Of a stretch of 64,000 nt of DNA, positions 1,659-52,031 are shown one piece after another. The notes beneath the pieces were generated by a model. That model saw only the letters and a program-made list of their open reading frames with translations. It was not told the origin of the DNA and did no database searches. Source of the stretch: Escherichia phage 121Q; sequence record NC_025447.1; one strand, written 5' to 3'. Within the stretch, counting starts at the first letter, position 1; the number at the start of each line of letters is the position of its first letter. A program made the position numbers and the translations under genes.

Positions 1659-2191
1659 CTATGCCAGTACGTAACAGTACTTCACGCTTTACGCTTCAAC
1701 AGAAAGCAGATCTTTTGAATATGGCTAACAAAGATTCTAATTTTTACTATCTAGTACTCGGTGGGTCAGTAGAAAAGATTGACCTACGTGAGTGTATGAA
1801 ATAACAAAAGGGGACTAAAAATGAGTCTACGTGAATCATGGGAACAATTTAAAGAAGAGATTGGTTATCGTGGTGTTAAGATTGAAAAAATCAATCGAAC
1901 CGAAAGCATCAAAGCCAGTACTAATGGCACTACCTATGATCGTTATGATGAAAAGTATGGTTTGCATTCTAAACCGAAGGATACTGAATAATGGTATACA
2001 CTAACATTTTTACTGGTATTATGCGTAAATTTATTAATGGTACTGGATACGTATCTAATGACAACGGTAGTACATGGGTAAAAAATAATACGTCTGAATC
2101 TTTAGTAAAAAGTCTTCCGTATTATAAAGCTTGACACATGAAAATGGAGTATATATAATACTCCTATATTAATTAAACGAGGATATACGAA

Positions 2192-2764
2192 ATGGCTGGT
2201 GTTGATAAAATTTGTGAATTCAGTTCAGATTATGAAGGTTACGAGATGTACAAGTCCAAGCGTAATCACATTCAAGTACTGTCAAAGTACCGTAAAGAAT
2301 TCCGAGGCCACAAAGCAACATTGTATGTTTTTGAGAATGGATATTCTGAAGTTTTCACAAGTGGTGGGTACAGTACAGCTAACATGGCACATATCAACCC
2401 AAACCCAACTGAAGATGATTGGAATAGTGGTAACGCTTTTCGTATTTCAATTTTGAATAAAATGAATCGTTACGACCGTTATTGTACATTCTTTGAAAAT
2501 ATTTCAGAATACAAACAAGCATTAAAGAAATATAATCAACGCTTACTAATGAATTATGATTACATTCTTCATGTGCCAACTGTTCCAGGTCAGGTTAATG
2601 GTCTGTATACGAATAGTACACATGATTTAACTGCGGTGAAGCGTCGCCTCAAACGTATGTTGGGTTGTCGTAATTTAACAATCAAGGTTATGCGTAATGA
2701 ATCAATGTATAACTTTTTAGATGTACTACACTACACACTGAAGGATAATAATGGAAACGATTAA
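2192..2764 (+). CDS. hypothetical protein
   Basis: ORF track; preceded by TTGACA...TATATAAT promoter-like sequence near 2130-2160. Confidence 0.45.
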   Translation: MAGVDKICEFSSDYEGYEMYKSKRNHIQVLSKYRKEFRGHKATLYVFENGYSEVFTSGGYSTANMAHINPNPTEDDWNSGNAFRISILNKMNRYDRYCTFFENISEYKQALKKYNQRLLMNYDYILHVPTVPGQVNGLYTNSTHDLTAVKRRLKRMLGCRNLTIKVMRNESMYNFLDVLHYTLKDNNGND

Positions 2765-2944
2765 GTTTATGTTTGAGGTGTTTGTTGCATTCATCTTATG
2801 TGCTGTGTCTCTTACTATTGCTTTAATCCCAGTAATCGTTTACCAAGTTAATGGTGGGACAGATCCAACAATTGATATTTTACTTCGTTGTTTCGGCTTT
2901 TTTATATGGTTGGCGATGTTTATGTACTACATGCATCTTGAGGA

Positions 2945-3781
2945 TTGATTATGTCATTAGAAAAAATAATCATTTCTGAATTCCGAAAGTATATCATGGA
3001 TTGTGATAGAGATGTGCAGCGTAAGTTCAATGAGTACCTTGACAAATATCCGTATTTGATGTTTAATCCGTTTGAAACTGATGATGATTTATATCTTGGT
3101 TTTTACATAGGATTTACTCAACGAATTCTTCATAAAGATGAAATGAAACAATCTGAGATTTGGGTAGAAACTGACTCATCAGAGTCTAATGTTTTTTATC
3201 TTTATACATATTATGCCGAAATTGTTAGAGATACGACACCTGATGGTTGTCTATTTATACAATCGTCTGATATTGAAAGAATATATATCGAACCTGTATC
3301 TTTAGATATGGTTGCCCAGCTTCCAACTATCCAACAGTTAGGTGCAGACGAATTAACTTATTCTGTATTTGAATATCTAGGTAGAGATGATTTGACTCAA
3401 GAAATTGATAAAATGGTTTCTAAATATACTTCATCACTTATTTCAAATGGTAAACTTAAATTAGAATTAATTTTTGAAGATACTAGTATTAATCCAGTAA
3501 GAGGGGTAACAATTGGAAAAGTTACCATACGTGTTGTTTACGATAATGAAGTATTAGGATATATTTCAAAACGTGGACATGATTTATGTATAATTAGTAC
3601 ATTCGTTGTTTCTCGTAAAAAATGGAATGATTTAATGCAAAAAATCGTGGACGGTAGTAAAATTCGTGATATAATATGTAATGACATGGTAATTATTAAT
3701 CCTGATGTTGACTGTGATGTATATTTTCCAGTTCCTGGATTTACACGAGAAAACTTTAGTAAATTGAAGGATAAGAAATGA
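2945..3781 (+). CDS. hypothetical protein
   Basis: ORF track; 278 aa; co-directional tight packing. Confidence 0.5.
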   Translation: MIMSLEKIIISEFRKYIMDCDRDVQRKFNEYLDKYPYLMFNPFETDDDLYLGFYIGFTQRILHKDEMKQSEIWVETDSSESNVFYLYTYYAEIVRDTTPDGCLFIQSSDIERIYIEPVSLDMVAQLPTIQQLGADELTYSVFEYLGRDDLTQEIDKMVSKYTSSLISNGKLKLELIFEDTSINPVRGVTIGKVTIRVVYDNEVLGYISKRGHDLCIISTFVVSRKKWNDLMQKIVDGSKIRDIICNDMVIINPDVDCDVYFPVPGFTRENFSKLKDKK

Positions 3782-4068
3782 AAATTTTAGAAGTCTTGCT
3801 AGAAAAAGATGCATCTGGTACTCTTTATGTTGGTAATGAGTTCAGTCCAGATCCAATTGATATGTTACAGAGAATCCAAACACTGACTCAAAACATCTCG
3901 GTTAAAAAACCGTTTCAGAAAGAATTGGAAATCTTTTGTGATAAAGATATTGAACAGCATGATAATGTGATTTCAGATATTAAAAGTCTATTGACAAAAA
4001 ATGGTTATGTAGAGTATAATCCTCCTATCGTAATCGTTATTCCAGACTTCATGAAAGGAACAATTTAA
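3778..4068 (+). CDS. hypothetical protein
   Basis: ORF track; ATGA overlap with upstream gene. Confidence 0.4.
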   Translation: MKILEVLLEKDASGTLYVGNEFSPDPIDMLQRIQTLTQNISVKKPFQKELEIFCDKDIEQHDNVISDIKSLLTKNGYVEYNPPIVIVIPDFMKGTI

Positions 4069-13442: not shown

Positions 13443-13543
<101 letters not shown>

Positions 13544-13562
13544 AGAGGTACTTCGAGTATGC

Positions 13563-13629
<67 letters not shown>

Positions 13630-13704
13630 TAATTGACATAACTTTGAATGGAGTGTATTATGTTCCAAGAAGAAAACTGGGGTTTTTAACATAACGGGGA
13701 ATGT

Positions 13705-13750
<46 letters not shown>

Positions 13751-13755
13751 GTGCT

Positions 13756-13794
<39 letters not shown>

Positions 13795-13795
13795 A

Positions 13796-13837
<42 letters not shown>

Positions 13838-13838
13838 G

Positions 13839-13889
<51 letters not shown>

Positions 13890-21171: not shown

Positions 21172-21395
21172 TTACTGCAACTGTATATCAAGATATCAAT
21201 GAAGAATTTCATTCTAAAATTGCGTTCTTATCATTTCCTGTACTCCCAGCAGTTGGGTCAACGTTGAATCTTACCATTTGTGGTTTTGAGAAATATTATA
21301 AAGTACTAGATATTGAGTACTGTGCTGATGTATATTCATGTAATAGTGAAATTGCAATTCCAGTATCAATCGATATTATTGTAAAAGAGGTTTGA
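21168..21395 (+). CDS. hypothetical protein
   Basis: ORF track; ATGA overlap. Confidence 0.4.
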   Translation: MITATVYQDINEEFHSKIAFLSFPVLPAVGSTLNLTICGFEKYYKVLDIEYCADVYSCNSEIAIPVSIDIIVKEV

Positions 21396-21397
21396 TT

Positions 21398-21853
21398 ATG
21401 TTTAAGAATTTTATGGTTATCGTAGCAGTACTGTTTGGTACATCATGTTTCATTTCCCCAGTACACGCAGAAGAACAACGTCAAACTATTAAAACTATTG
21501 GGACTGGTAAAACTCCCCCTAAACGTACTGCTGAAGAATACATGCCTGAAATGCGTGAACGTTATCGTCAGACATACAGGGAAAAACATGCTAATGATAA
21601 ACCCATCAAGAAGCATAAATGGGAAGTTGTTAAATCTCCTTCATTTTGTGCTGGATATGCTAAAGTAAAGATTGAGCAGCACAAAAACCAGTACTATAAA
21701 GATATGTATTCCTTCTATGACTCCAGAATTTCTGACACAGATATGATGGCAGGGAAGGTTGATAAAGAAGAATTTCTACAAGGCTATGATATGATGGACG
21801 ATGACAAAATCATGGAATGCGTTGAAGTGTATGAAAAATACAGAGGCTTCTGA
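21398..21853 (+). CDS. hypothetical secreted protein (signal peptide)
   Basis: ATG after AAAGAGG; N-terminus MFKNFMVIVAVLFGTSCFISPVHA. Confidence 0.45.
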   Translation: MFKNFMVIVAVLFGTSCFISPVHAEEQRQTIKTIGTGKTPPKRTAEEYMPEMRERYRQTYREKHANDKPIKKHKWEVVKSPSFCAGYAKVKIEQHKNQYYKDMYSFYDSRISDTDMMAGKVDKEEFLQGYDMMDDDKIMECVEVYEKYRGF

Positions 21854-22830: not shown

Positions 22831-23253
22831 ATGTTCACACTAAGTAATGCAAAATATCTTTTTCTTATTAGTATTATTGGTTGGGTTATGGCTCCAGTGC
22901 TAAATGCACTGGGGTTTTCCGATGAACATAAACTTTTAAATGTTTCAGGTTTAATTCAGGGTATTTCATGGTATACATTAATTATATTTTCAGTGTGCAT
23001 CAATACATTTGCCCGTGATTATCGACGTTTGTTATATCTGAAAGTATTTGGAACTACACGATATAGTTTTGTTTACACTTTCATTTTAGTACCGTGTATG
23101 TTATATGCATTTGTATTTGATTACTATACATATCTATGGGTATGTGGAACTATGTTTGTTATGTTGGAATACATCAGAACTGTTCAAAACTCATATGCCG
23201 ATGAGTTTCATGATCTAGAAGTTAAACGAAAATTAACGGAGCTAAACAAATGA
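22831..23253 (+). CDS. hypothetical polytopic membrane protein
   Basis: ORF track; multiple hydrophobic segments. Confidence 0.45.
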   Translation: MFTLSNAKYLFLISIIGWVMAPVLNALGFSDEHKLLNVSGLIQGISWYTLIIFSVCINTFARDYRRLLYLKVFGTTRYSFVYTFILVPCMLYAFVFDYYTYLWVCGTMFVMLEYIRTVQNSYADEFHDLEVKRKLTELNK

Positions 23254-23675
23254 GAGGCTATAATAAGATTTGTATTTTTGTATTTTTAGTTTGTGCATTC
23301 AATTCGTTTGGTTACTACTGTACAGAAAATAATATTTCATATGGTTTAAATCCTTTGTGGTTTACAATTTCCAATGTAGCACAAATTGGTATTGCTCTTA
23401 TGTCTGCACTTATGTTCTGTCCAATTGTCACTATGGATACTGATCATGAAAGGCTTGGATTTCTCCGTGATACTGGAGACGAACCTTACAGTAGATTGAT
23501 TGTGTTGTATCCATTTATTGTTATTTTAGGTACTAACATCCAACTTGGGTCATTATCTAATAGTGTTACATCAGCAGCTATTGCTATATTTGCATTCACA
23601 TTTTTTATGGTACACAAATCAGTACTTAATTGGTATATCACAAAAATGGCAGAAGAAGGTACTAAAAATACTTGA
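23250..23675 (+). CDS. hypothetical polytopic membrane protein
   Basis: ORF track; ATGA overlap. Confidence 0.45.
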   Translation: MRGYNKICIFVFLVCAFNSFGYYCTENNISYGLNPLWFTISNVAQIGIALMSALMFCPIVTMDTDHERLGFLRDTGDEPYSRLIVLYPFIVILGTNIQLGSLSNSVTSAAIAIFAFTFFMVHKSVLNWYITKMAEEGTKNT

Positions 23676-32045: not shown

Positions 32046-32708
32046 ATGTTAGTTAATCTTAATTTCATCACTTCACCTGACTGGGCATTACGTGGGGTTT
32101 CTTTAAACTTCAAGGAAACTATGTTTGATTACATTGGTGAGTGTACATTGGTAAATGCAACTTTTGACCCAAATCATCCGTTCTGGGCTGAAATTCATGA
32201 TCCAACTGTAAACAACAATACATCTGTTATGACTATTGTCCAGACTAAACATGCAGGTATCCTTGCAGGTTATCGACCTGGACATGCAATTGAACACTTC
32301 ACTGATTACGATGTAGTGGATGAATACCCAATGATCCATGAAGATGGAAGTCTATACACATCTGAAGACTTCCGTGCTATCTTTAATAGTACTGATGATA
32401 TTCTACCAAGTGGACGTCCACGTCCTGAGTCTTATCTTATGCATCCATCTTATGGTGTAGCAGATACGCTTGAACAGATTATGAATAAGTACAAGAACCT
32501 AATTGAAGGTCCAGAAGAAATTGTCCTGTGCTATCACCCAGTACTTAAGTCTGAACAACCAAAGGATGGTGGATGGCGTTGGCATAAGAATGGTGAGTAT
32601 ATCGGTACTAAACGAAGTAAAGAACGTTTTGAGTACTTGTATGATGAACCAGATGTTGATGTGGTTTTGTGTTATAATTTTATTAAGGTGAAAAAGAAAT
32701 GTATCTAG
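32046..32708 (+). CDS. hypothetical protein
   Basis: ATG at 32046 after GAGGA; track ORF 32028-32708. Confidence 0.45.
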   Translation: MLVNLNFITSPDWALRGVSLNFKETMFDYIGECTLVNATFDPNHPFWAEIHDPTVNNNTSVMTIVQTKHAGILAGYRPGHAIEHFTDYDVVDEYPMIHEDGSLYTSEDFRAIFNSTDDILPSGRPRPESYLMHPSYGVADTLEQIMNKYKNLIEGPEEIVLCYHPVLKSEQPKDGGWRWHKNGEYIGTKRSKERFEYLYDEPDVDVVLCYNFIKVKKKCI

Positions 32709-32941
32709 TACTAAGTTTTGTTGTTGCACTATTGTTTATGTTCTATCCTACACTAGTGGCATTAGCCACTAGACGAACGATGGTAGATCTCACTACTGTA
32801 TTCTTGCTAAACGTGGCATTAGTACTGGTGTCTATTATCATTCCAGTGAGCTTTACAGTTATTGATATTATTTCGGTATTACTCTTCGTGTTAAGTTATC
32901 TTATGCTTATTGAAGAAACAAATGTTGACAAACGTTCGTAG
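32699..32941 (+). CDS. small membrane protein
   Basis: ORF track; two hydrophobic segments. Confidence 0.4.
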   Translation: MYLVLSFVVALLFMFYPTLVALATRRTMVDLTTVFLLNVALVLVSIIIPVSFTVIDIISVLLFVLSYLMLIEETNVDKRS

Positions 32942-32952
32942 TACTGTATAAT
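32925..32952 (+). promoter_or_regulatory. sigma70-like promoter (TTGACA - 16 nt - TATAAT)
   Basis: Spacer contains TAGTACTG; upstream of ORF 32999. Confidence 0.45.
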
Positions 32953-32998
32953 GGTTCCTGTAGTCTGAAACTTAACACTTAAACTTGAGGTAAAAAAT

Positions 32999-33325
32999 AT
33001 GCTATCAGTACTAATTTCAATTCCGTCTTTAATTCTGATTTGGCTTCTGGTTTACGAATGCTTTATTACTGATGATAATGATAAAAAAGAGTTCTCTGAG
33101 TTGTTTATGCTTGATTCACCGATTGTGCGTATTTTCTATACAGTCGTTGTGGTTTCAGTAATTGTATGGGTTTTGAGTTTTATCTTCCCACTCGGTGCAG
33201 TAGTTAAAACTTTGGATTTAGTTGAGAACTTTGTTGCAATTATGTGGCTAATCAAAGCACTATTTGCAGGAAATGTTAAAATTTGGATTGATATTATCAA
33301 ATTCAAGTTCACGAATAAGATGTAA
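32999..33325 (+). CDS. small membrane protein
   Basis: ORF track. Confidence 0.4.
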   Translation: MLSVLISIPSLILIWLLVYECFITDDNDKKEFSELFMLDSPIVRIFYTVVVVSVIVWVLSFIFPLGAVVKTLDLVENFVAIMWLIKALFAGNVKIWIDIIKFKFTNKM

Positions 33326-33774: not shown

Positions 33775-34152
33775 ATGGTAAACACTATTTTACTTTTGTT
33801 GTTGAATATTCCAATTATTCTGTCTTTTTTAATTTCTATTTTTATGGCAGGATATTGTTTAGTTGCAGTAATTCATTTCATTTTAACAAACAAATATGTC
33901 CTAATTTCTAAGCTTGATTCTATTTTTGCTTGCGATTCGATTGCTTATAACTTGTGGTTAATTTGTTCTTGCATTATGGGAGTAACTTTCCTTCTGCATG
34001 TATTTGATGTCCTTGACCAAAAGTTCGTATACATCAGTACTGGATTGGCTCTTTATCCTGCTACGTGGTACTTGATTTACGTTGGTGATATATGGTATAG
34101 TACTTATAAAGAATATCAGTACAAGAAATCACTTAACGTTGGAGGAAAATAA
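33775..34152 (+). CDS. hypothetical membrane protein
   Basis: ORF track; polytopic hydrophobicity. Confidence 0.4.
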   Translation: MVNTILLLLLNIPIILSFLISIFMAGYCLVAVIHFILTNKYVLISKLDSIFACDSIAYNLWLICSCIMGVTFLLHVFDVLDQKFVYISTGLALYPATWYLIYVGDIWYSTYKEYQYKKSLNVGGK

Positions 34153-40779: not shown

Positions 40780-40813
40780 AGGGTTGACTTCGGTCAGCCT
40801 TTTTTGTTATGAT
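40780..40813 (+). promoter_or_regulatory. stem-loop terminator overlapping promoter (PeSL-like cassette)
   Basis: GGGTTGAC-TTCG-GTCAGCC + TTTTTT; TATGAT downstream. Confidence 0.5.
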
Positions 40814-40841
40814 GTTGATATTAACTACAGAGGATAAAGTA

Positions 40842-41483
40842 ATGACTAAGCAAGAAATATTCAAAACTTTAATTGACATTTTGCGTCCATCAAAAACTCG
40901 TTGTGCGATGGAGTTTGATATTCCTTATGCTGAACGCGTAATCTTTCCACAAGTTAAAGCTGCTGGACTTACTTTGCTTGGAATGGGGATGTACTCTGTA
41001 GTAGTTGAACATAAAAACTATCCTGGGCGTGCATTTAAAGTAACCACTTCACGCTGGGATGGTTTTCGTGCTTATGCAAAGTACTGCATTGAAAACGCAG
41101 GAACCAAGTTTCTTCCAGTGATCTACAGTGCCAACGAACAAGGAAACTTTGGATGGTATGAGATGGACAAGTACTATCCTATAATTAAACAAAAAAATAA
41201 TTATGATGACTTTGTTAGTACTAAAATTGGAGATTTATATTCTTATGCACATGCTGGTCAGTACGCTACTTCAGTGAATGATATGCGTGGTAATTCTGAA
41301 GAGATTGCTATTGCAACGGTCGCTGCTAACATCATGAAAGAGTTTCACGGGCGTTTTGTACCAGACATTCATTCAAGTAATGTAATGATGGATAAAGATG
41401 GGAATGTATTCATTACTGATCCTCTTTCGTGTGATGTGCGTAGAGAAATACCAATTACTGAAGAAGATCCAGTTTTTTATTGA
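40842..41483 (+). CDS. hypothetical protein
   Basis: ATG at 40842 after AGAGGA; track ORF 40809-41483. Confidence 0.45.
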   Translation: MTKQEIFKTLIDILRPSKTRCAMEFDIPYAERVIFPQVKAAGLTLLGMGMYSVVVEHKNYPGRAFKVTTSRWDGFRAYAKYCIENAGTKFLPVIYSANEQGNFGWYEMDKYYPIIKQKNNYDDFVSTKIGDLYSYAHAGQYATSVNDMRGNSEEIAIATVAANIMKEFHGRFVPDIHSSNVMMDKDGNVFITDPLSCDVRREIPITEEDPVFY

Positions 41484-41544
41484 CAGAACTGATGTTCTGG
41501 TGTATTCTTAATAAACCATAAAAATTGCGGTAAAGGATAAAATC

Positions 41545-41826
41545 ATGCGTTCATTTGAAAACTTAATAGGTAAGCATCTTTTATCTGAAATTGATGCAGA
41601 CGTTAAAGAATTATCCAAATCAAAAAGTTACATTCATTTGGATGAACTGTTTATTAAGTACGGTGAGATTGGTTTTAAGTCATTATTTGTTTTTACTATG
41701 AAAGTACATAGTTTAAAGTACTTCGATTTGAGTACTAAAGATGGTGAACCGAATCTATATTACATGTATTACCTTAAGAACAAAGATGAAGCTAATACAT
41801 TACTCTCTGAATATATATTGGGGTAA
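41545..41826 (+). CDS. hypothetical protein
   Basis: ORF track. Confidence 0.4.
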   Translation: MRSFENLIGKHLLSEIDADVKELSKSKSYIHLDELFIKYGEIGFKSLFVFTMKVHSLKYFDLSTKDGEPNLYYMYYLKNKDEANTLLSEYILG

Positions 41827-41828
41827 AA

Positions 41829-42167
41829 ATGGAACAATATTTTGAATTAATAAACAAAGTATCATTTTATGTAGTATCTTTGGTTTGGGTGTATTATATG
41901 TTTTGCTATATTATTGCATTCTTCCGATATACTACTTTATATGAACGTATCTACTATGATGCCCCAATTTCATTCTTGATGTTTTGTGCCTGTACGTGGG
42001 GAATATTAGAAGTACTGATATGTGGGTATAGTACTGATGAATTAAATCTGGTATCGGTGTTGACTGGGTTTTCATTTGTTGTTATGATAGCTGCCGTTCC
42101 AGTATGGTTGTTCTTTGGACTAGTTCATCGCATTGATATATGGCGTTCTAATATCCCTGAAAAGTAA
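41829..42167 (+). CDS. small polytopic membrane protein, paralog family (C-terminal RxNIPEK-type motif)
   Basis: Hydrophobic segments; ends HRIDIWRSNIPEK. Confidence 0.45.
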   Translation: MEQYFELINKVSFYVVSLVWVYYMFCYIIAFFRYTTLYERIYYDAPISFLMFCACTWGILEVLICGYSTDELNLVSVLTGFSFVVMIAAVPVWLFFGLVHRIDIWRSNIPEK

Positions 42168-42176
42168 GGATTGGTA

Positions 42177-42518
42177 ATGATTTATTACACTAACATGTTT
42201 GCCTATGCTGTTGCTTGCATTTACATTGTTTACTTCTTATTCGGTGGAGTACTGTGCTTCTTTAAGTACAAAACGTTGTTCAACCGAATGTACCCAAATC
42301 ATCCAATTGTAGTTGTACTTTTGATTCTTTCAGTTTCTCAAATAATCGTTGAAACTACAATGGGTATCAGTAGTGTACATTATAGTTTTGGTACTATAGT
42401 AATTATTACTATGCTTATTGCATACATTTTAGTACTTGGATATGGTATCTTTGGTAATATTGGTATGAAAATGTATCATCGAATTAAAACATTACGTGAT
42501 AATCTACCGGAGCGTTGA
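42177..42518 (+). CDS. small polytopic membrane protein, paralog family
   Basis: ATG at 42177; ends HRIKTLRDNLPER. Confidence 0.45.
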   Translation: MIYYTNMFAYAVACIYIVYFLFGGVLCFFKYKTLFNRMYPNHPIVVVLLILSVSQIIVETTMGISSVHYSFGTIVIITMLIAYILVLGYGIFGNIGMKMYHRIKTLRDNLPER

Positions 42519-42519
42519 T

Positions 42520-42864
42520 ATGTATAATTTGAACCTAATCTCATATATTATAACAACACTGTTTACATTCTATGCCTTTGTTGGTATAATCCTACTGTAC
42601 TTTAAATTTTATAAAGTGTTTAACCGTTTCTATCCTTCAATGGAGAATGAGTTTTTCTTTGTGTTGTACGTAGGTTACACATTAATGGCTACATGTTTCA
42701 CTGTAGCCGATGGTGTCATCGGCATTAAAACTGATTCCCCAAATGGTAGTACGCTGGTTGCATTTATTCTTACTGGATTCCTTGCAACTTATATTGCCTT
42801 CATTACAACATGGTCAGTGGTTGAATTTCTCTTGCGACTACGAAAGAATATGCCGAATCGATAG
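42520..42864 (+). CDS. small polytopic membrane protein, paralog family
   Basis: ATG at 42520; ends LLRLRKNMPNR. Confidence 0.45.
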   Translation: MYNLNLISYIITTLFTFYAFVGIILLYFKFYKVFNRFYPSMENEFFFVLYVGYTLMATCFTVADGVIGIKTDSPNGSTLVAFILTGFLATYIAFITTWSVVEFLLRLRKNMPNR

Positions 42865-42873
42865 GAGACATAT

Positions 42874-43128
42874 ATGTTTGCGTTGCGTAATAAAAACACT
42901 AAAGAATTATTATGTATTGATACCGTATGGGATTGTGCGGGTTCAACTACAGTTCTTGAAGAAGGAACTGGATATTGCGTGTTTGTTGTACATGATAGGA
43001 ATGAACTCGAATTATTACTTGCTGAGTTCAATGCTGGTGGTAATCCTAACAGTACTGAATACCCTGAGATTATCAATCCAGCACCTCCAGGTTCATATGA
43101 AATCCTACCACTATGGGTGTTGAAATAA
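42874..43128 (+). CDS. hypothetical protein
   Basis: ORF track. Confidence 0.4.
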   Translation: MFALRNKNTKELLCIDTVWDCAGSTTVLEEGTGYCVFVVHDRNELELLLAEFNAGGNPNSTEYPEIINPAPPGSYEILPLWVLK

Positions 43129-43508
43129 TGCGACAAATGTACAAAGTAACCGAGCTAAACAAGCGTCTGGTTAAACAATCTATGTTTGAGGATAAAGAGT
43201 CTTACTATAACTTTAAACGTGCTGTAGAGGCTGCTATCCACATTCAGAAGCTTAAAGAACGTGGTTGTATTATTCTGGAAAATGGTTCGGAAGTTGTAAC
43301 GGATGACTTTAGTGTAGCGTTTGATGTTTCACCTGATGGGACGCTATCAATGCCCCGCTTAGGAACTGGAAACATGACTGTTTGGGTTGGCTTCACTATG
43401 GGGAATGTACCTGGTACTGTGTACGTAGATGATGCGGAATTGAAAGACAGTTTCAAAAACTTATCTTATCTTGAACCACAATACGCACATGAAATGAATT
43501 TATTTTGA
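43126..43508 (+). CDS. hypothetical protein
   Basis: ATG at 43126 immediately after upstream stop. Confidence 0.45.
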
Positions 43509-43509
43509 G

Positions 43510-43537
43510 TTGACAAACACATTCAGTACTGTATAAT
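43510..43537 (+). promoter_or_regulatory. sigma70-like early promoter (TTGACA - 16 nt - TATAAT)
   Basis: Spacer contains CAGTACTG. Confidence 0.5.
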
Positions 43538-43584: not shown

Positions 43585-44139
43585 ATGATTACTTTTAAGA
43601 AAACTGCTAACCACATCCATGAAATCTACATTAACGGTCATAAAGCTGGCCTTCTTCGTTTACTCGCCCATCACCCTGATGCTACCGTATCTGATAATGA
43701 ACCTAAAGATTGGCGTGTCTTTTTCTTTGGAAAGTACAGTGATTTTCAAGTATCAAACCTGAAGAACATTCGTTCAGTATGCACGTTAACTGAAATTAAA
43801 GAAAAGTTAGCACAAGCATTGAAAACTAATCCAGATGGTGTTCTTCCACCTGATAACTTTGTAGAGAAAGGTTATGCCTTAGCTCATTTCAAAGATGGTA
43901 CTATTCAATCTATCAGTACTGAATATGAATATCATTGGACTGAGTACTTCACTTATGGTTCGAGTAATACATTGATGGATTCACGTAGTAAATTGGAAGA
44001 AGTACTGACTCGTATGAATGAACGCGAGCGTCAGTTATATGACAAACCAGAAATGTGGAGTTCAACTTACATTGACCGTATTGACTATGTTATTATGACT
44101 CCAATCTTTGACACTGCTTACTATGATTCTTTGAAATAA
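43585..44139 (+). CDS. hypothetical protein
   Basis: ORF track. Confidence 0.5.
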   Translation: MITFKKTANHIHEIYINGHKAGLLRLLAHHPDATVSDNEPKDWRVFFFGKYSDFQVSNLKNIRSVCTLTEIKEKLAQALKTNPDGVLPPDNFVEKGYALAHFKDGTIQSISTEYEYHWTEYFTYGSSNTLMDSRSKLEEVLTRMNERERQLYDKPEMWSSTYIDRIDYVIMTPIFDTAYYDSLK

Positions 44140-44366: not shown

Positions 44367-44618
44367 ATGAAAATATTATTAGTTCTAATACTACTAATAG
44401 TTTTACCATTTACTTTAGTATCCCCTGGACTTGCATGGAATGTATTTGTGTACTTAGTATGTACTATTGTAGTAAATGGTATCTTGTTCTTAGTTCTATT
44501 CATAAATGGAATAGGACACGGTGGAGGATGGACCAGTACTGCTGATATTGTACATAAAACCACTATGTCTTTATTTGTAATGTGGAATTTGTTCTGGACT
44601 TGGTTTGTGTTCTTCTAA
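44367..44618 (+). CDS. small membrane protein
   Basis: ORF track; hydrophobic throughout. Confidence 0.4.
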   Translation: MKILLVLILLIVLPFTLVSPGLAWNVFVYLVCTIVVNGILFLVLFINGIGHGGGWTSTADIVHKTTMSLFVMWNLFWTWFVFF

Positions 44619-48722: not shown

Positions 48723-48757
48723 AAAGGGTTGACTTCGGTCAGCCCTTTTTGCTATAA
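48723..48757 (+). promoter_or_regulatory. stem-loop terminator overlapping promoter (PeSL-like cassette, canonical copy)
   Basis: AAAAAGGGTTGACTTCGGTCAGCCCTTTTTGCTATAATTATTTCATCAA. Confidence 0.6.
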
Positions 48758-48786
48758 TTATTTCATCAACTGATGAGGATAACGAA

Positions 48787-49557
48787 ATGACCAGAGAAGC
48801 ACGCAGCATTCAAATTCAGAAAAACTTCAACTCCATGATGGTTGCTCTTGAGTGTTTGCTCGATGATAGCAGTACTGTAAAAAGTATGGTTGTCAGTGGT
48901 GCTCCTGGTGTTGGCAAGACTTACACCCTGTCTAAACGCCTCCAGAAAGCTCATGACGCAGCAGAATGGAACGTAGCTACCATCAGTGGTAAAATGACTA
49001 CTCTGGCTCTGTACGAAGTTCTGTACAAGAATCGTCATAGCACCAACGTATTAGTACTGGACGATATGGACAGTATTTTTGATTCTGAAGACGGTATGAA
49101 CCTGCTCAAAGCAGTACTGGATAGTGGTAAGCGTACCGTGTCTTATATGACTAGCTCTAAGTACTTGAGCACTAACGGAATTCCTAATAGCTTTGATTTT
49201 AATGGTCGCATCGTATTCATTACTAACAAAGATTTAGCGTTAGATGCTAAAGCTAAAACTAAAATGTCTGCTCATTATGCTGCTCTTATGTCTCGTTCTG
49301 TGTACGTGGATTTACAGATTCAGACTAAAAGTGATATCATGATTCATATTGAGAACGTGATGAATCAGACTAACATTTTAGAATCTAAGGGTATTAACCG
49401 TAATGGTAGTAAAGCAATTCTGAACTGGATGTTGAAGCACGAAGATTCTCTTCGTTCACCTTCACTGCGTATGCCACTGTTGATTTCGGCAGTATATAAC
49501 AACAACCCATACGATTGGGAAGAACAGTGCGAAAACTTGTTCCTTGAGAAAATTTAA
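48787..49557 (+). CDS. P-loop NTPase (AAA-like ATPase)
   Basis: Walker A GAPGVGKT and Walker B-like VLVLDDMD read from the product. Confidence 0.6.
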   Translation: MTREARSIQIQKNFNSMMVALECLLDDSSTVKSMVVSGAPGVGKTYTLSKRLQKAHDAAEWNVATISGKMTTLALYEVLYKNRHSTNVLVLDDMDSIFDSEDGMNLLKAVLDSGKRTVSYMTSSKYLSTNGIPNSFDFNGRIVFITNKDLALDAKAKTKMSAHYAALMSRSVYVDLQIQTKSDIMIHIENVMNQTNILESKGINRNGSKAILNWMLKHEDSLRSPSLRMPLLISAVYNNNPYDWEEQCENLFLEKI

Positions 49558-49564
49558 TTCAATA

Positions 49565-49596
49565 TTGACAGTACTAACAACGTGTAGTACTATAAC
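49565..49596 (+). promoter_or_regulatory. sigma70-like promoter (TTGACA ... TATAAC)
   Basis: Spacer contains AGTACT twice; upstream of membrane-paralog array. Confidence 0.4.
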
Positions 49597-49622: not shown

Positions 49623-49964
49623 ATGCGTGAGTTTTTTGAATCTAATATAATGCTTGGTATCACACTGATATACATGTTTGTATTCTTGTTTTATCATTCA
49701 ATTGTAATTAGTCTTTGGTATTTTAAAAGGAAAGTTGTTTTTAAATTGTATTCATATAATAATGTATTCTTGGTTGTATATAGCATTATACAAGGTGGAT
49801 TTATTTTATTTGGTGTGATGACATATGTGATTTACATGTTACAAATTGATAACACACCACACATTACACAATATGTTGTGTTTTCAGGACTAATCGTCTG
49901 GTTATTGGTGTGTACTATGTACTTTATTATTAAAGCTCGTGATAACTTTAAATGGGGATTCTAA
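49623..49964 (+). CDS. small polytopic membrane protein, tandem paralog 1
   Basis: ORF track; related to next copy (…FFESNIMLGITLIYMFVF… vs …FFKSDTMISITLIYLFGF…). Confidence 0.45.
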   Translation: MREFFESNIMLGITLIYMFVFLFYHSIVISLWYFKRKVVFKLYSYNNVFLVVYSIIQGGFILFGVMTYVIYMLQIDNTPHITQYVVFSGLIVWLLVCTMYFIIKARDNFKWGF

Positions 49965-50302
49965 TGTTAGAATTTTTTAAATCAGATACAATGATTAGTA
50001 TTACTTTGATTTATCTTTTTGGTTTTTTCTTTTATCATGCACTAGTTGTAGTACTATGGTATTTTAAAAAGAAAATTGTTTTTAAACTGTATCCAGTGAG
50101 GAATTCATCACTAGTTCTTTACACACTTGTTCAAGGTTTGTTTGCAATTGTTGGTCTTATGGCACACTTAATTTATTGTGCTAATCCTCACTTGAACTCA
50201 ATCTCACAATATATTGTATTCTTTGGATTGTTCATTTGGTTAGTTGCATACTTAATCCATCTCATTATTCATGGTAGAGATAAAATTCGCGGAGACTTCT
50301 AA
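49955..50302 (+). CDS. small polytopic membrane protein, tandem paralog 2
   Basis: ATG at 49955; ends HGRDKIRGDF. Confidence 0.45.
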   Translation, partial: GILMLEFFKSDTMISITLIYLFGFFFYHALVVVLWYFKKKIVFKLYPVRNSSLVLYTLVQGLFAIVGLMAHLIYCANPHLNSISQYIVFFGLFIWLVAYLIHLIIHGRDKIRGDF

Positions 50303-50649
50303 TGTTTGAAGCTTATCTTGAGTTTTTAAGGAGTAGTCCAGTTGCACATTCACTTGCAGGGATTATTCTAACAACTTATGTATCATTTTGGGTAGTTATG
50401 TTTCTAGGATGGTATTTTAAACGACAATTCTATAAACGTAATGGTGAAGATTTTATGAATTCTGTCATTAATCAATCGTTGTTTGCATCAACATTGATTG
50501 CATGTATTGTAGCAACACTCACAGGAAAGGTACTACCAGCTTTTTCCGCAGTTTACGGCACACTTGGGATGATATGTTTAACTTTTATATTGACCATTAA
50601 AATTTGTTGTGTTATGATTGAACTTCGAAATAAGATACCGGAGGAATGA
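50302..50649 (+). CDS. small polytopic membrane protein, tandem paralog 3
   Basis: ORF track; ends ELRNKIPEE. Confidence 0.45.
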   Translation: MFEAYLEFLRSSPVAHSLAGIILTTYVSFWVVMFLGWYFKRQFYKRNGEDFMNSVINQSLFASTLIACIVATLTGKVLPAFSAVYGTLGMICLTFILTIKICCVMIELRNKIPEE

Positions 50650-50984
50650 TGGAGTACTTTATTGATTTACTGCCGTGGTATATGAAAGTTAGTACCATGT
50701 ACTATATTATTAGTGCTGGATTCTACTTTCTGATGTGGTTCTTTAAACGACCAATTTCAGTATTCATCGCTGATAACATGCTGCAATTAAAATTACACGC
50801 ATGGTTTGGTATGGCGATGATTATGCCTATTATTCACTACTCAATGATTAGTAGAGGTTTCCGTTCTAATGGTGAACCAATTGTATTAGTATTCTATTGG
50901 GGTTCAACTATTGCATATGTAAGTTTGTTGTTGTTCCCAGTCGTTCATAAGTTACGTGCTAAAGTTCCTGATGCGAGGTACTAA
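50646..50984 (+). CDS. small polytopic membrane protein, tandem paralog 4
   Basis: ORF track; ATGA overlaps. Confidence 0.45.
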   Translation: MMEYFIDLLPWYMKVSTMYYIISAGFYFLMWFFKRPISVFIADNMLQLKLHAWFGMAMIMPIIHYSMISRGFRSNGEPIVLVFYWGSTIAYVSLLLFPVVHKLRAKVPDARY

Positions 50985-51300
50985 TGGATATAGTAACATT
51001 GATTTACACGTTGTATTCATTCTATTTCATTATGTGTTGGGTTGGATTTTTATTTGTACTCAAGATGTTTGATTATGTTGAAAAACAGATAAAAGAATTT
51101 TGTATTCCTTTTATCGGTTCAACCATTATTAGTGTTTCTTGTGTGTATTTTTTTGGTTTTTGATCCACCAGATAACACTGCAATGATTGACTTGATGTTA
51201 CTACCAACAACTGTTACTTTTTTATGTAGTCTGATGCCGCCGATTAGCCGTGGACTAACAGAATTTAGACGCAATCAAAAGCGTAAACGAGGGATGTAAT
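50984..51300 (+). pseudogene. membrane-protein paralog apparently disrupted by a frameshift
   Basis: 59-codon N-terminal ORF (MDIVTLIYTLYSF...) stops at about 51163; a second frame continues to ...RRNQKRKRGM, matching the C-terminus of the next paralog. Confidence 0.3.
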
Positions 51301-51667
51301 GGAAATTGCTCTTATTATCTTAACTGCTATGCTGTTTATTAGTACTGTGGTTATAATTGGTAAATTCTTTTGTGTATCATTTTTAGAAACGGTATACGAT
51401 GAAATTGCTGATGATTATGAATTCCAAGCCGGATTTTTCATTACGTATTGGCTTAGTTTATTTTGTCTAGTCATTGCTTGGATTTTACATATCTTTAAAT
51501 GGGGTATGGTAGACGGTGATCCTATTATGGCAATTATTGTTCTAGTGTTTGGTATCCTTGGTGGTGCAGTGCATAATCTAATGGTTATCTGGCAAACTGT
51601 TCAATATGTTTTGGTTCCCTATTTCGAAAAGATGCACAGTACAATTAAAAAACGTAAACGAGGTTAG
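51299..51667 (+). CDS. small polytopic membrane protein, tandem paralog 6
   Basis: ORF track; ends TIKKRKRG. Confidence 0.45.
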   Translation: MEIALIILTAMLFISTVVIIGKFFCVSFLETVYDEIADDYEFQAGFFITYWLSLFCLVIAWILHIFKWGMVDGDPIMAIIVLVFGILGGAVHNLMVIWQTVQYVLVPYFEKMHSTIKKRKRG

Positions 51668-51668
51668 T

Positions 51669-52031
51669 ATGAACGGGATAGAATTATCTTTCGTTGGTCA
51701 ATTACTAGTAATGGCGTATACATTTATCTTCTCACTGAATGCATTCGTGTGCATTGGGAAGTACTTCCATAAGCGACCATTATCAAATATATATGATGTA
51801 ATCCAAAAGAGATATAGTCCAGCATATACTGTGTTGGGTACAGTATTCAATTTTGGTTTTATTGTATTAATAATTGGACTGTTCACATCCTCTTTGAATA
51901 CAATAACCTTCGGTCTTATGATATGTTCATTGGTATTAGCCGTAATTATATGTTGTTTAGTACTGCACCTTGTGGTACTATTGTATATAAAGATCTCTGA
52001 AATCCACCAACGTTTGGGTATGAGGAAATAA
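51669..52031 (+). CDS. small polytopic membrane protein, tandem paralog 7
   Basis: ATG at 51669; track ORF 51606-52031. Confidence 0.4.
   Translation: MNGIELSFVGQLLVMAYTFIFSLNAFVCIGKYFHKRPLSNIYDVIQKRYSPAYTVLGTVFNFGFIVLIIGLFTSSLNTITFGLMICSLVLAVIICCLVLHLVVLLYIKISEIHQRLGMRK

Follow-up and report, generated by a model that had tools for sequence, protein, structure and literature searches.

Two arrays of small membrane protein genes

The 64,000-nucleotide (nt) stretch of the Escherichia phage 121Q genome analysed here (NC_025447.1; hereafter the window) carries two tandem arrays of small genes for predicted three-transmembrane (TM) proteins, one of three genes at 41,829–42,864 (A1 to A3) and one of eight gene positions at 49.6–52.4 kb (B1 to B8), the latter directly downstream of a gene for an ATPase related to T4 NrdC.10 (Table 1). 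The source phage is an Asteriusvirus, a PBECO4/121Q-like jumbo coliphage. The 41–44 kb region is 98–99% identical to about 20 Escherichia and Salmonella Asteriusvirus jumbo phages with genomes of 310–385 kb (CRJP21, PBECO4, UB, G17, Sharanji and others) and 86–93% identical to a second tier of relatives (UE-S1, TH47, ph0011, WPEC3/5 and EC.P1). The window is AT-rich, with a GC content of 31–39%, and almost all of its genes up to ~53 kb lie on the plus strand. A preliminary description of this DNA had reported three tandem open reading frames (ORFs) at 41,829–42,864 ending in RSNIPEK, RDNLPER and RKNMPNR and had assigned them to the same membrane-protein family as the larger array; the ORFs, their tails and the outer coordinates are exactly as it gave them.

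As judged from their sequences, the A genes are genuine genes and not chance ORFs. All eleven array positions are intact ORFs in good-quality relatives, a check from which the CMSTMSU record (marked UNVERIFIED and rich in frameshifts) was left out. In comparison with phage BF17, which is ~80% identical at the protein level, the ratio of nonsynonymous to synonymous substitution rates (dN/dS) was 0.17 for A1, 0.14 for A2 and 0.30 for A3, 0.10–0.37 for the six B genes tested (B2, B3, B4, B6, B7 and B8), and 0.11, 0.27 and 0.04 for the neighbouring orf93, orf184 and ATPase genes; these values indicate purifying selection. The A proteins match phrog_19285 end to end (A1, E = 3.9e-59; A2, E = 1.5e-58; A3, E = 2e-4). 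PBECO4 and 33 other Asteriusvirus genomes carry A orthologues in the same synteny (kinase, orf93, A1, A2, A3), with no biological difference from the window, and the PBECO4 orthologues gp317 (YP_009150631.1), gp316 (YP_009150630.1) and UniProt L7TI41 ('Transmembrane protein') are ~99% identical to the window A genes. The status of the A orthologues in public records is hypothetical. A2 most likely starts at ATG 42,177 rather than TTG 42,171, and A3 at ATG 42,520 rather than the overlapping GTG 42,496, because orthologue annotations (A2 in PBECO4; A2 and A3 in BF17 and ph0011) and Shine-Dalgarno-like motifs favour these codons; the motif lies ~10–11 nt upstream of both ATGs, and before ATG 42,520 it is a GGAG at 11 nt.

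When a hidden Markov model (HMM) of the family was run on the 869 six-frame ORFs of the window it recovered A1 to A3, seven intact B genes and both halves of B5, so that the eleven copies counted in the preliminary description are borne out as eleven loci; the remaining six-frame ORFs of the window and those of the phi92 and RB32 loci gave no match. The split of B5 is caused by a single extra T, a T7 run at 51,148–51,154 compared with T6 in PBECO4. B5 is intact, at 104 amino acids (aa), in six relatives (PBECO4, CRJP21, which is the closest, BF17, TH47, UE-S1 and ph0011), and the frameshift is restricted to the source genome among those compared; it reflects a sequencing error or else a true pseudogene of this strain. 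The presence of B1 (47% identity to B2) is naturally polymorphic: among the 98–99% identical Asteriusvirus genomes it occurs in about 12 and is absent from the rest, including PBECO4, phAPEC6 and slurp01.

Evidence for remote homology between the arrays

Pairwise comparison within the window relates the genes inside each array. BLASTP aligned A1 with A2 at E = 1.5e-9, A2 with A3 at E = 1e-5 and B1 with B2 at E = 5e-35, and the best cross-array pair was A1 with B8 at E = 0.03. The PHROG collection places A1–A3 in phrog_19285 and the B genes in five other families (19454, 19046, 27396, 26405 and 27618). First-pass profiles, built from near-identical orthologues only, were too shallow, with a best cross-array hhalign probability of 18% (A1–B8), and their cross-array scores were still above those of reversed-sequence decoys (Mann-Whitney p = 0.002).

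The profiles were enriched with diverged arrays from Escherichia phages A4 and JNE01, Klebsiella phage Muenster and Erwinia phage Hallingskeid and with metagenomic members; identity to B2 is 38–45% for the A4 and JNE01 genes and 28% for Muenster. Whichever A or B gene was used as the seed, jackhmmer retrieved the same ~98 ORFs, which are all the array members in ten genomes, and no other of 510 ORFs. Reversed sequences never scored in jackhmmer or phmmer searches, and shuffles that keep the hydrophobic/polar pattern reached E ~1e-3, which sets the noise floor for cross-array searches. The best single-pass phmmer link between the arrays joins a JNE01 A gene to the first B gene of A4 at E = 4.6e-7 (2.7e-5 in the reverse direction), and further links at E values of 3e-4 to 9e-4 include window A1 with the B8 orthologues (~6e-4) and window A3 with a Hallingskeid gene. 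The same genomes supplied forty non-array ORFs with at least two TM segments, 18 having three segments and several being near the family length; by phmmer none of these matched at E < 1.

Full-length profile comparison gave the strongest signal. By hhalign, the A-type profile aligned with the JNE01 A2 type at 98.2% probability (E = 4e-14) and with the Hallingskeid array genes at 96.7% (E = 3.9e-10 over 103 columns). Against the B positions of the array it reached 93.1% for B3 (E = 3e-7, 97 columns), 89.6% for B6 (E = 1.9e-6, 78 columns), 89.3% for B1/2 (E = 2e-6, 91 columns) and 75% for B7 (E = 2.5e-5, 79 columns), with an identity of ~16% between A-type and B-type array genes in the profile alignments. 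Reversed decoys reached at most 1.5% with the A-type profile, and all 90 decoy comparisons yielded one outlier, with a score of 32. A profile of the ten window paralogues, searched against 1.84 billion representative proteins, returned just 33 matches at E ≤ 1e-3. Thirty of these are 89–127 aa long and were matched essentially end to end with the motifs visible; of the other three, which are not full-length members, two are truncated fragments and one is a repeat protein of 572 aa.

The preliminary description had staked its claim of a shared family on significant similarity between the two arrays. Within the window BLASTP offers at best only the E value of 0.03, and the enriched profiles give 89–97%; together with the intermediate sequences, these profiles support the A genes as a distinct subfamily of one superfamily with the B array, the relationship between the arrays being remote. 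The contrary reading is that the A and B proteins are unrelated and converged on a small three-TM architecture, with the likeness of their tails a by-product of embedded ribosome-binding sites. The lack of significant pairwise similarity between the arrays in the window, their separation in PHROGs, the pattern-preserving shuffles near E = 1e-3 and the Shine-Dalgarno motifs within tail codons (see below) would all fit convergence. It is difficult to reconcile with full-length profile alignments at 89–97% where decoys stay at or below 1.5%, with a direct cross-array link at E = 4.6e-7 when forty other TM ORFs (18 of them three-TM) never match, or with a superfamily profile that retrieves so few of 1.84 billion proteins. 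The invariant Phe motif is shared far from the tail, A-like genes lie within the single Hallingskeid array, and the Pro codon of the A1 and A3 tails falls outside any Shine-Dalgarno motif. We therefore regard convergence as very improbable.

Predicted topology and conserved motifs

The family proteins in the window are ~112–123 aa long. At the hydropathy threshold used, three hydrophobic segments are present in every intact copy except B4, and the tail at the C-terminus is short and basic in all intact window copies, B4 included. In the 67 family members for which three TM segments are predicted, the mean number of Lys and Arg residues is 0.4 at the N-terminus, 3.1 in loop 1, 0.4 in loop 2 and 4.6 in the C-terminal tail, and the inside-positive pattern is obeyed by all 67; the Lys and Arg residues of loop 1 and the tail therefore imply an N-out/C-in topology. 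This agrees with independent TMHMM notes in the Muenster record, which give '3 TMDs; N-out, C-in' for five of the eight array genes, three TM domains with N-in, C-out for two and two TM domains for one. An AlphaFold2 model of A1, computed from the ten-paralogue alignment with a mean predicted local distance difference test score (pLDDT) of 73, has helices at residues 2–31, 35–41 (a short loop helix), 47–66 and 74–107. The predicted layout is a periplasmic N-terminus, three TM helices and a cytoplasmic C-terminus in the inner membrane, with a short amphipathic helix predicted in the first cytoplasmic loop. By these predictions the family shares an architecture of 100–130 aa, three TM helices, N-out/C-in orientation and a basic C-terminal tail.

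The sole invariant residue in the ten-paralogue window alignment is the Phe of a [WYF]-F-[KRHC] motif at the cytoplasmic end of TM1. A deliberately narrow pattern for this motif was found in 54 of a 77-sequence set, and some of the misses carry the motif, such as A1 (FFRY) and A2 (FFKY). Clustering and motifs divide the family into type I (the A genes and B1–B4) and type II (B6–B8). The motif that follows TM1 is [FY]-F-[KR] in the A genes, W-[YF]-F-K in B1–B4 and GKFF[CH] or YFFC in the type II proteins, which end in ...KRKRG or ...KRMS (...NKRMS).

A C-terminal tail of the form R-x-[NK]-hydrophobic-P-[ED]-[RKE] is found in the A genes and in B3 and B4. The preliminary description had used the tails as evidence of a family, for which they are weaker alone than they look; in several genes the tail overlaps the Shine-Dalgarno sequence of the next gene. 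The codons concerned are CCG GAG in A2 (serving A3), CCG GAG GAA in B3 (CCGGAGGA), and CGA GGG and CGA GGT in the ...KRKRG tails, and tail similarity is therefore partly constrained at the nucleotide level. Because the Pro codon of A1 and A3 lies outside the Shine-Dalgarno sequence and the motif persists in deeply diverged homologues, the tail is also a feature at the protein level. Taken jointly, we consider it highly likely that the A genes are real, that they belong to this family, that they are homologous to the B genes and that the proteins have the topology described.

Distribution and evolution of the family

By tblastn the A subfamily was found only in 34 Asteriusvirus records, each of which has one A-type gene or more. 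Copy number at the A locus varies from one (A4) to three (the window, and JNE01, which has an unrelated ORF in addition), and in each case the copies sit within a conserved frame that runs from orf93 to orf184. The Muenster genes CPT_Muenster_554-561 (annotated 'putative membrane protein'), the Hallingskeid genes CDS0085-0095 and window B1–B8 resemble the A genes in length, topology and the Phe motif at the end of TM1, and these B-type arrays share in part the C-terminal R-x-[NK]-hydrophobic-P-[ED] tail of the A genes. The A genes differ from the B-type arrays in that they lie in a different operon and do not adjoin the NrdC.10-like ATPase gene.

Each B position is an orthogroup common to Asteriusvirus and Klebsiella phage Muenster, and the order of the B genes is largely the same in both, except that in Muenster the B1/2-type gene comes after two B3-type genes. 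The B array therefore predates these genera. Hallingskeid encodes proteins with A-like ...RLPER tails within a single ten-gene array downstream of the ATPase gene, as would be expected if the A array had moved out of one ancestral array. Comparison of the arrays by blastn gave a best E value of 0.008 over 25 nt; no DNA similarity is left, which rules out a recent duplication or gene conversion between the arrays and therefore indicates an ancient duplication. The duplication and dispersal proposed in the preliminary description is thus upheld, with the amendment that it is ancient, has left no trace at the DNA level and had already given rise to an A subfamily now present in all Asteriusvirus lineages. 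These comparisons indicate that the arrays were parted by ancient duplication and relocation and not by a recent event, and that the family is restricted to RaK2-like jumbo phages.

Logan metagenome contigs (P0016) hold a family member with an A-like tail (...IRSNIKPT) upstream of genes for proteins of 346 and 255 aa. The gene order resembles the endonuclease and NrdC.10-like ATPase pair that precedes the Hallingskeid B-type array, with the gene identities putative; if the two genes do encode the endonuclease and the ATPase, this member would lie just outside a B-type array.

Gene junctions, promoters and neighbouring genes

Junctions within the arrays range from -4 to +9 nt, and every array start codon has a Shine-Dalgarno-like motif 4–12 nt upstream, within or overlapping the preceding stop codon. 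The A genes lie in a compact unit of orf93, A1, A2, A3, orf84 and orf131, and matches to sigma70 promoters are found near both arrays (Table 1). We consider that the arrays are probably expressed early and as polycistronic messages, a moderately firm expectation from the arrangement of the genes. In the 41-nt gap between B8 and orf220, a hairpin with a perfect 11-bp stem lies at 52,409–52,434 (AATCCAGTACT-TGAT-AGTACTGGATT). It was scored as terminator-like by the scan on the minus strand only, the plus strand having no T-run, and it may be a processing or stability element.

Table 1. Array genes, neighbouring genes and promoter-like sites in the window
Feature	Position	Strand	Description
Sigma70-like promoter match	41480–41508	+	TTGACA-17-TATTCT in the gap before orf93; candidate A-operon promoter; consensus match only
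orf93	41545–41826	+	Soluble, 93 aa; first operon gene; conserved upstream of the A array in every Asteriusvirus locus examined
A1	41829–42167	+	112 aa, three TM helices, predicted N-out/C-in; tail ...WRSNIPEK
A2	42177–42518	+	113 aa from ATG 42177, three TM helices; tail ...LRDNLPER
A3	42520–42864	+	114 aa from ATG 42520, three TM helices; tail ...LRKNMPNR
orf84	42874–43128	+	Soluble, downstream, in the same tightly packed unit as the A genes
orf131	43113–43508	+	Soluble, downstream, in the same tightly packed unit as the A genes
Perfect sigma70 consensus	43510–43537	+	TTGACA-16-TATAAT in the gap upstream of orf184; would mark the start of the next transcription unit
orf184	43585–44139	+	Downstream of the perfect sigma70 site
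Promoter-like site	48729–48758	+	Sigma70-like match before the ATPase gene
AAA/P-loop ATPase	48787–49557	+	256 aa; T4 NrdC.10 homologue, directly upstream of the B array
Promoter-like site	49565–49593	+	Sigma70-like match before B1
B1	49623–49964	+	Type I paralogue, W-[YF]-F-K motif after TM1
B2	49964–50302	+	Type I paralogue, W-[YF]-F-K motif after TM1
B3	50302–50649	+	Type I paralogue, W-[YF]-F-K motif after TM1; tail ...KIPEE, A-like
B4	50646–50984	+	Type I paralogue, W-[YF]-F-K motif after TM1; tail ...KVPDARY, A-like
B5	50984–51299	+	Frameshifted here into ORFs of 59 aa and 55 aa
B6	51299–51667	+	Type II paralogue
B7	51669–52031	+	Type II paralogue, 120 aa from ATG
B8	52033–52404	+	Type II paralogue

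The ATPase is ~40% identical to T4 NrdC.10 over 80% of its length and has homologues in 1308 phage records. In RaK2-like jumbo phages its gene always lies directly before the three-TM array, a linkage seen in Asteriusvirus, in Muenster and in Hallingskeid; after nrdC.10 of the T4-type phage RB32, the family HMM found no members in the locus. The product of orf93 has no Pfam match. Upstream of orf93, depositors of related genomes call the gene at 40,809–41,483 a T7 gp0.7-like 'protein kinase; inhibitor of host transcription', and it has no Pfam match at E ≤ 0.01. In PBECO4 and ph0011, flags for virion proteins are on nearby genes and not on the array genes.

Small membrane proteins unrelated to the family are plentiful in the window. 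Other small ORFs with two to four TM segments lie at 22,831–23,675, 32,699–33,325, 33,775–34,152 and 44,367–44,618, among them one of 108 aa with three TM segments at 32,999–33,325, and none of them ever matches the family profiles. At ~53 kb both gene orientation and GC skew flip, and from there the minus strand (53,089–64,000) carries a succession of RCC1-like paralogues ('regulator of chromosome condensation'); the relatives A4 and JNE01 have at least seven RCC1-like copies.

Public annotation of the two loci is uneven. In CRJP21 (OQ708376.1, locus extract 1819-4021) the ATPase and B1–B4 are labelled 'regulator of chromosome condensation' or 'DNA condensation protein' and A1 is labelled 'endonuclease V', and the product names appear to be shifted. 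A3 and B7 are unannotated in the PBECO4 RefSeq record (locus extract 13520-13876, 21293-21698), as is A1 in the phAPEC6 and UB records. Notes in the ph0011 record ('Phi92_gp231/233/234') would suggest relatives in phage phi92; the phi92 region consists of unrelated short ORFs in which the family HMM finds nothing, and these notes look like automatic label transfer.

Possible functions of the family

Searches of Pfam, NCBIfam and the anti-phage defence models of PADLOC (the last run on nine members) gave no significant match for the family proteins, and the weak library matches to DUF350, TRAP-gamma, Wzy and SUR7 are typical membrane-protein noise. Foldseek comparison of the AlphaFold model with the PDB returned nothing at E < 1, and comparison with BFVD returned only the PBECO4 orthologue at that level. 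The literature on RaK2-like phages gives only general counts of membrane proteins and paralogues (CBB paper); we found nothing in it on the three-TM family, and found no public source that names any distant family member.

The ancient, order-conserved paralogues and the dispensable members (B1, B5 with its frameshift and the A genes, which vary in number) suggest accessory inner-membrane factors made early in infection. We propose that the A genes would be transcribed by host RNA polymerase from sigma70-type promoters within an early/middle gene block and that the arrays would be translated as a coupled polycistron. The products would be inserted into the host inner membrane, where each paralogue would serve as an individually dispensable accessory factor on the envelope of the infected cell. 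The leading candidate roles would be the exclusion of superinfecting phages or the neutralisation of membrane-acting host defences. T4 Imm and Sp and P22 SieA, which act in superinfection exclusion, are small inner-membrane proteins of lytic-phage early regions or prophages and act at the cytoplasmic membrane. They are similar to the family in being small inner-membrane proteins and have no homology to it, the family proteins having no Pfam or NCBIfam match of the Imm or Sp type, so that an exclusion role here is hypothetical; T4 Imm also has two TM segments and is single-copy, whereas the family has three TM segments and eleven copies. A conserved inner-membrane family of RaK2-like phages with this mode of action is in our view the best explanation overall, and we hold it with moderate confidence. 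An envelope accessory or exclusion-type function in itself is put forward tentatively.

Several observations weigh against this proposal. The promoter-like matches are not enriched over shuffles across the region (73 found compared with 72.6 expected), and the promoter evidence is therefore suggestive only. The signal in the iterated searches is partly architectural, as the hydrophobic/polar-preserving shuffles indicate, and neither the family databases nor the fold searches supply a homology-based clue to function. The order of the B genes, conserved between genera, is a better fit to non-redundant and possibly cooperating components than to a fast-turnover arms-race toolkit.

In the main rival reading, the eleven paralogues would be subunits of one hetero-oligomeric inner-membrane complex (a channel, scaffold or anchor) working with the NrdC.10-like ATPase. 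An ATPase gene followed by an array of 7–10 three-TM genes is syntenic in Asteriusvirus, Muenster and Hallingskeid, the B genes remain orthologous position by position in different genera, tight coupling of translation would help to make the subunits in balanced amounts, and the conserved cytoplasmic C-terminal motif could serve as a docking site. Against a complex, individual members appear to be dispensable, namely B1 (present or absent), the A genes (one to three copies) and the B5 frameshifted here; in addition, the A array lies 6.6 kb from the ATPase gene in another transcription unit, and T4-type phages have a homologue of the ATPase without such neighbours. We consider such a complex unlikely. 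A more specific form, in which the coupled three-TM paralogues and the ATPase would make up an inner-membrane machine particular to RaK2-like phages, for example a scaffold or channel needed for infection with a 350-kb genome, is a little less likely again; if true, it would be a module so far undescribed.

The proteins might instead be holins of class I topology or antiholin-like proteins that time lysis. Class I holins such as lambda S105 are ~100–120 aa long, with three TM helices, an N-out/C-in orientation and a charged cytoplasmic C-terminal tail. The family resembles them in size, in its predicted topology and in its short charged C-terminal tail, and has no sequence or significant fold match to them. 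An endolysin with an N-terminal TM domain has been described in RaK2-like phages, with no holin named (PMC5259590), and the weak BFVD fold matches include proteins annotated as holins, all at E > 1. Against a lysis role, no Pfam or PHROG holin family is matched at E values up to 1, there are eleven copies, and the neighbours are of early type (the kinase, a denV-like endonuclease and the NrdC.10-like ATPase) behind sigma70-like promoters. No lysis gene or endolysin is annotated in the surrounding 27 kb of PBECO4, and the annotators of Muenster used the label 'putative membrane protein' only. A holin function is thus improbable, and accessory inner-membrane factors remain our preferred reading.

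About 80% of jumbo-phage genes have no known function. The present analysis reveals no new mechanism, and multigene families like this one, confined to one lineage, are common in large phage genomes. Annotation does become simpler, in that the two separate arrays and no fewer than six PHROG families can be merged into a single superfamily, ~11 genes in each genome, whose members have a uniform predicted topology and conserved cytoplasmic motifs. Natural variants are at hand in the presence or absence of B1, the copy number of the A genes and the frameshifted B5, and the family offers a concrete, testable gene set for early inner-membrane effects of giant coliphages.

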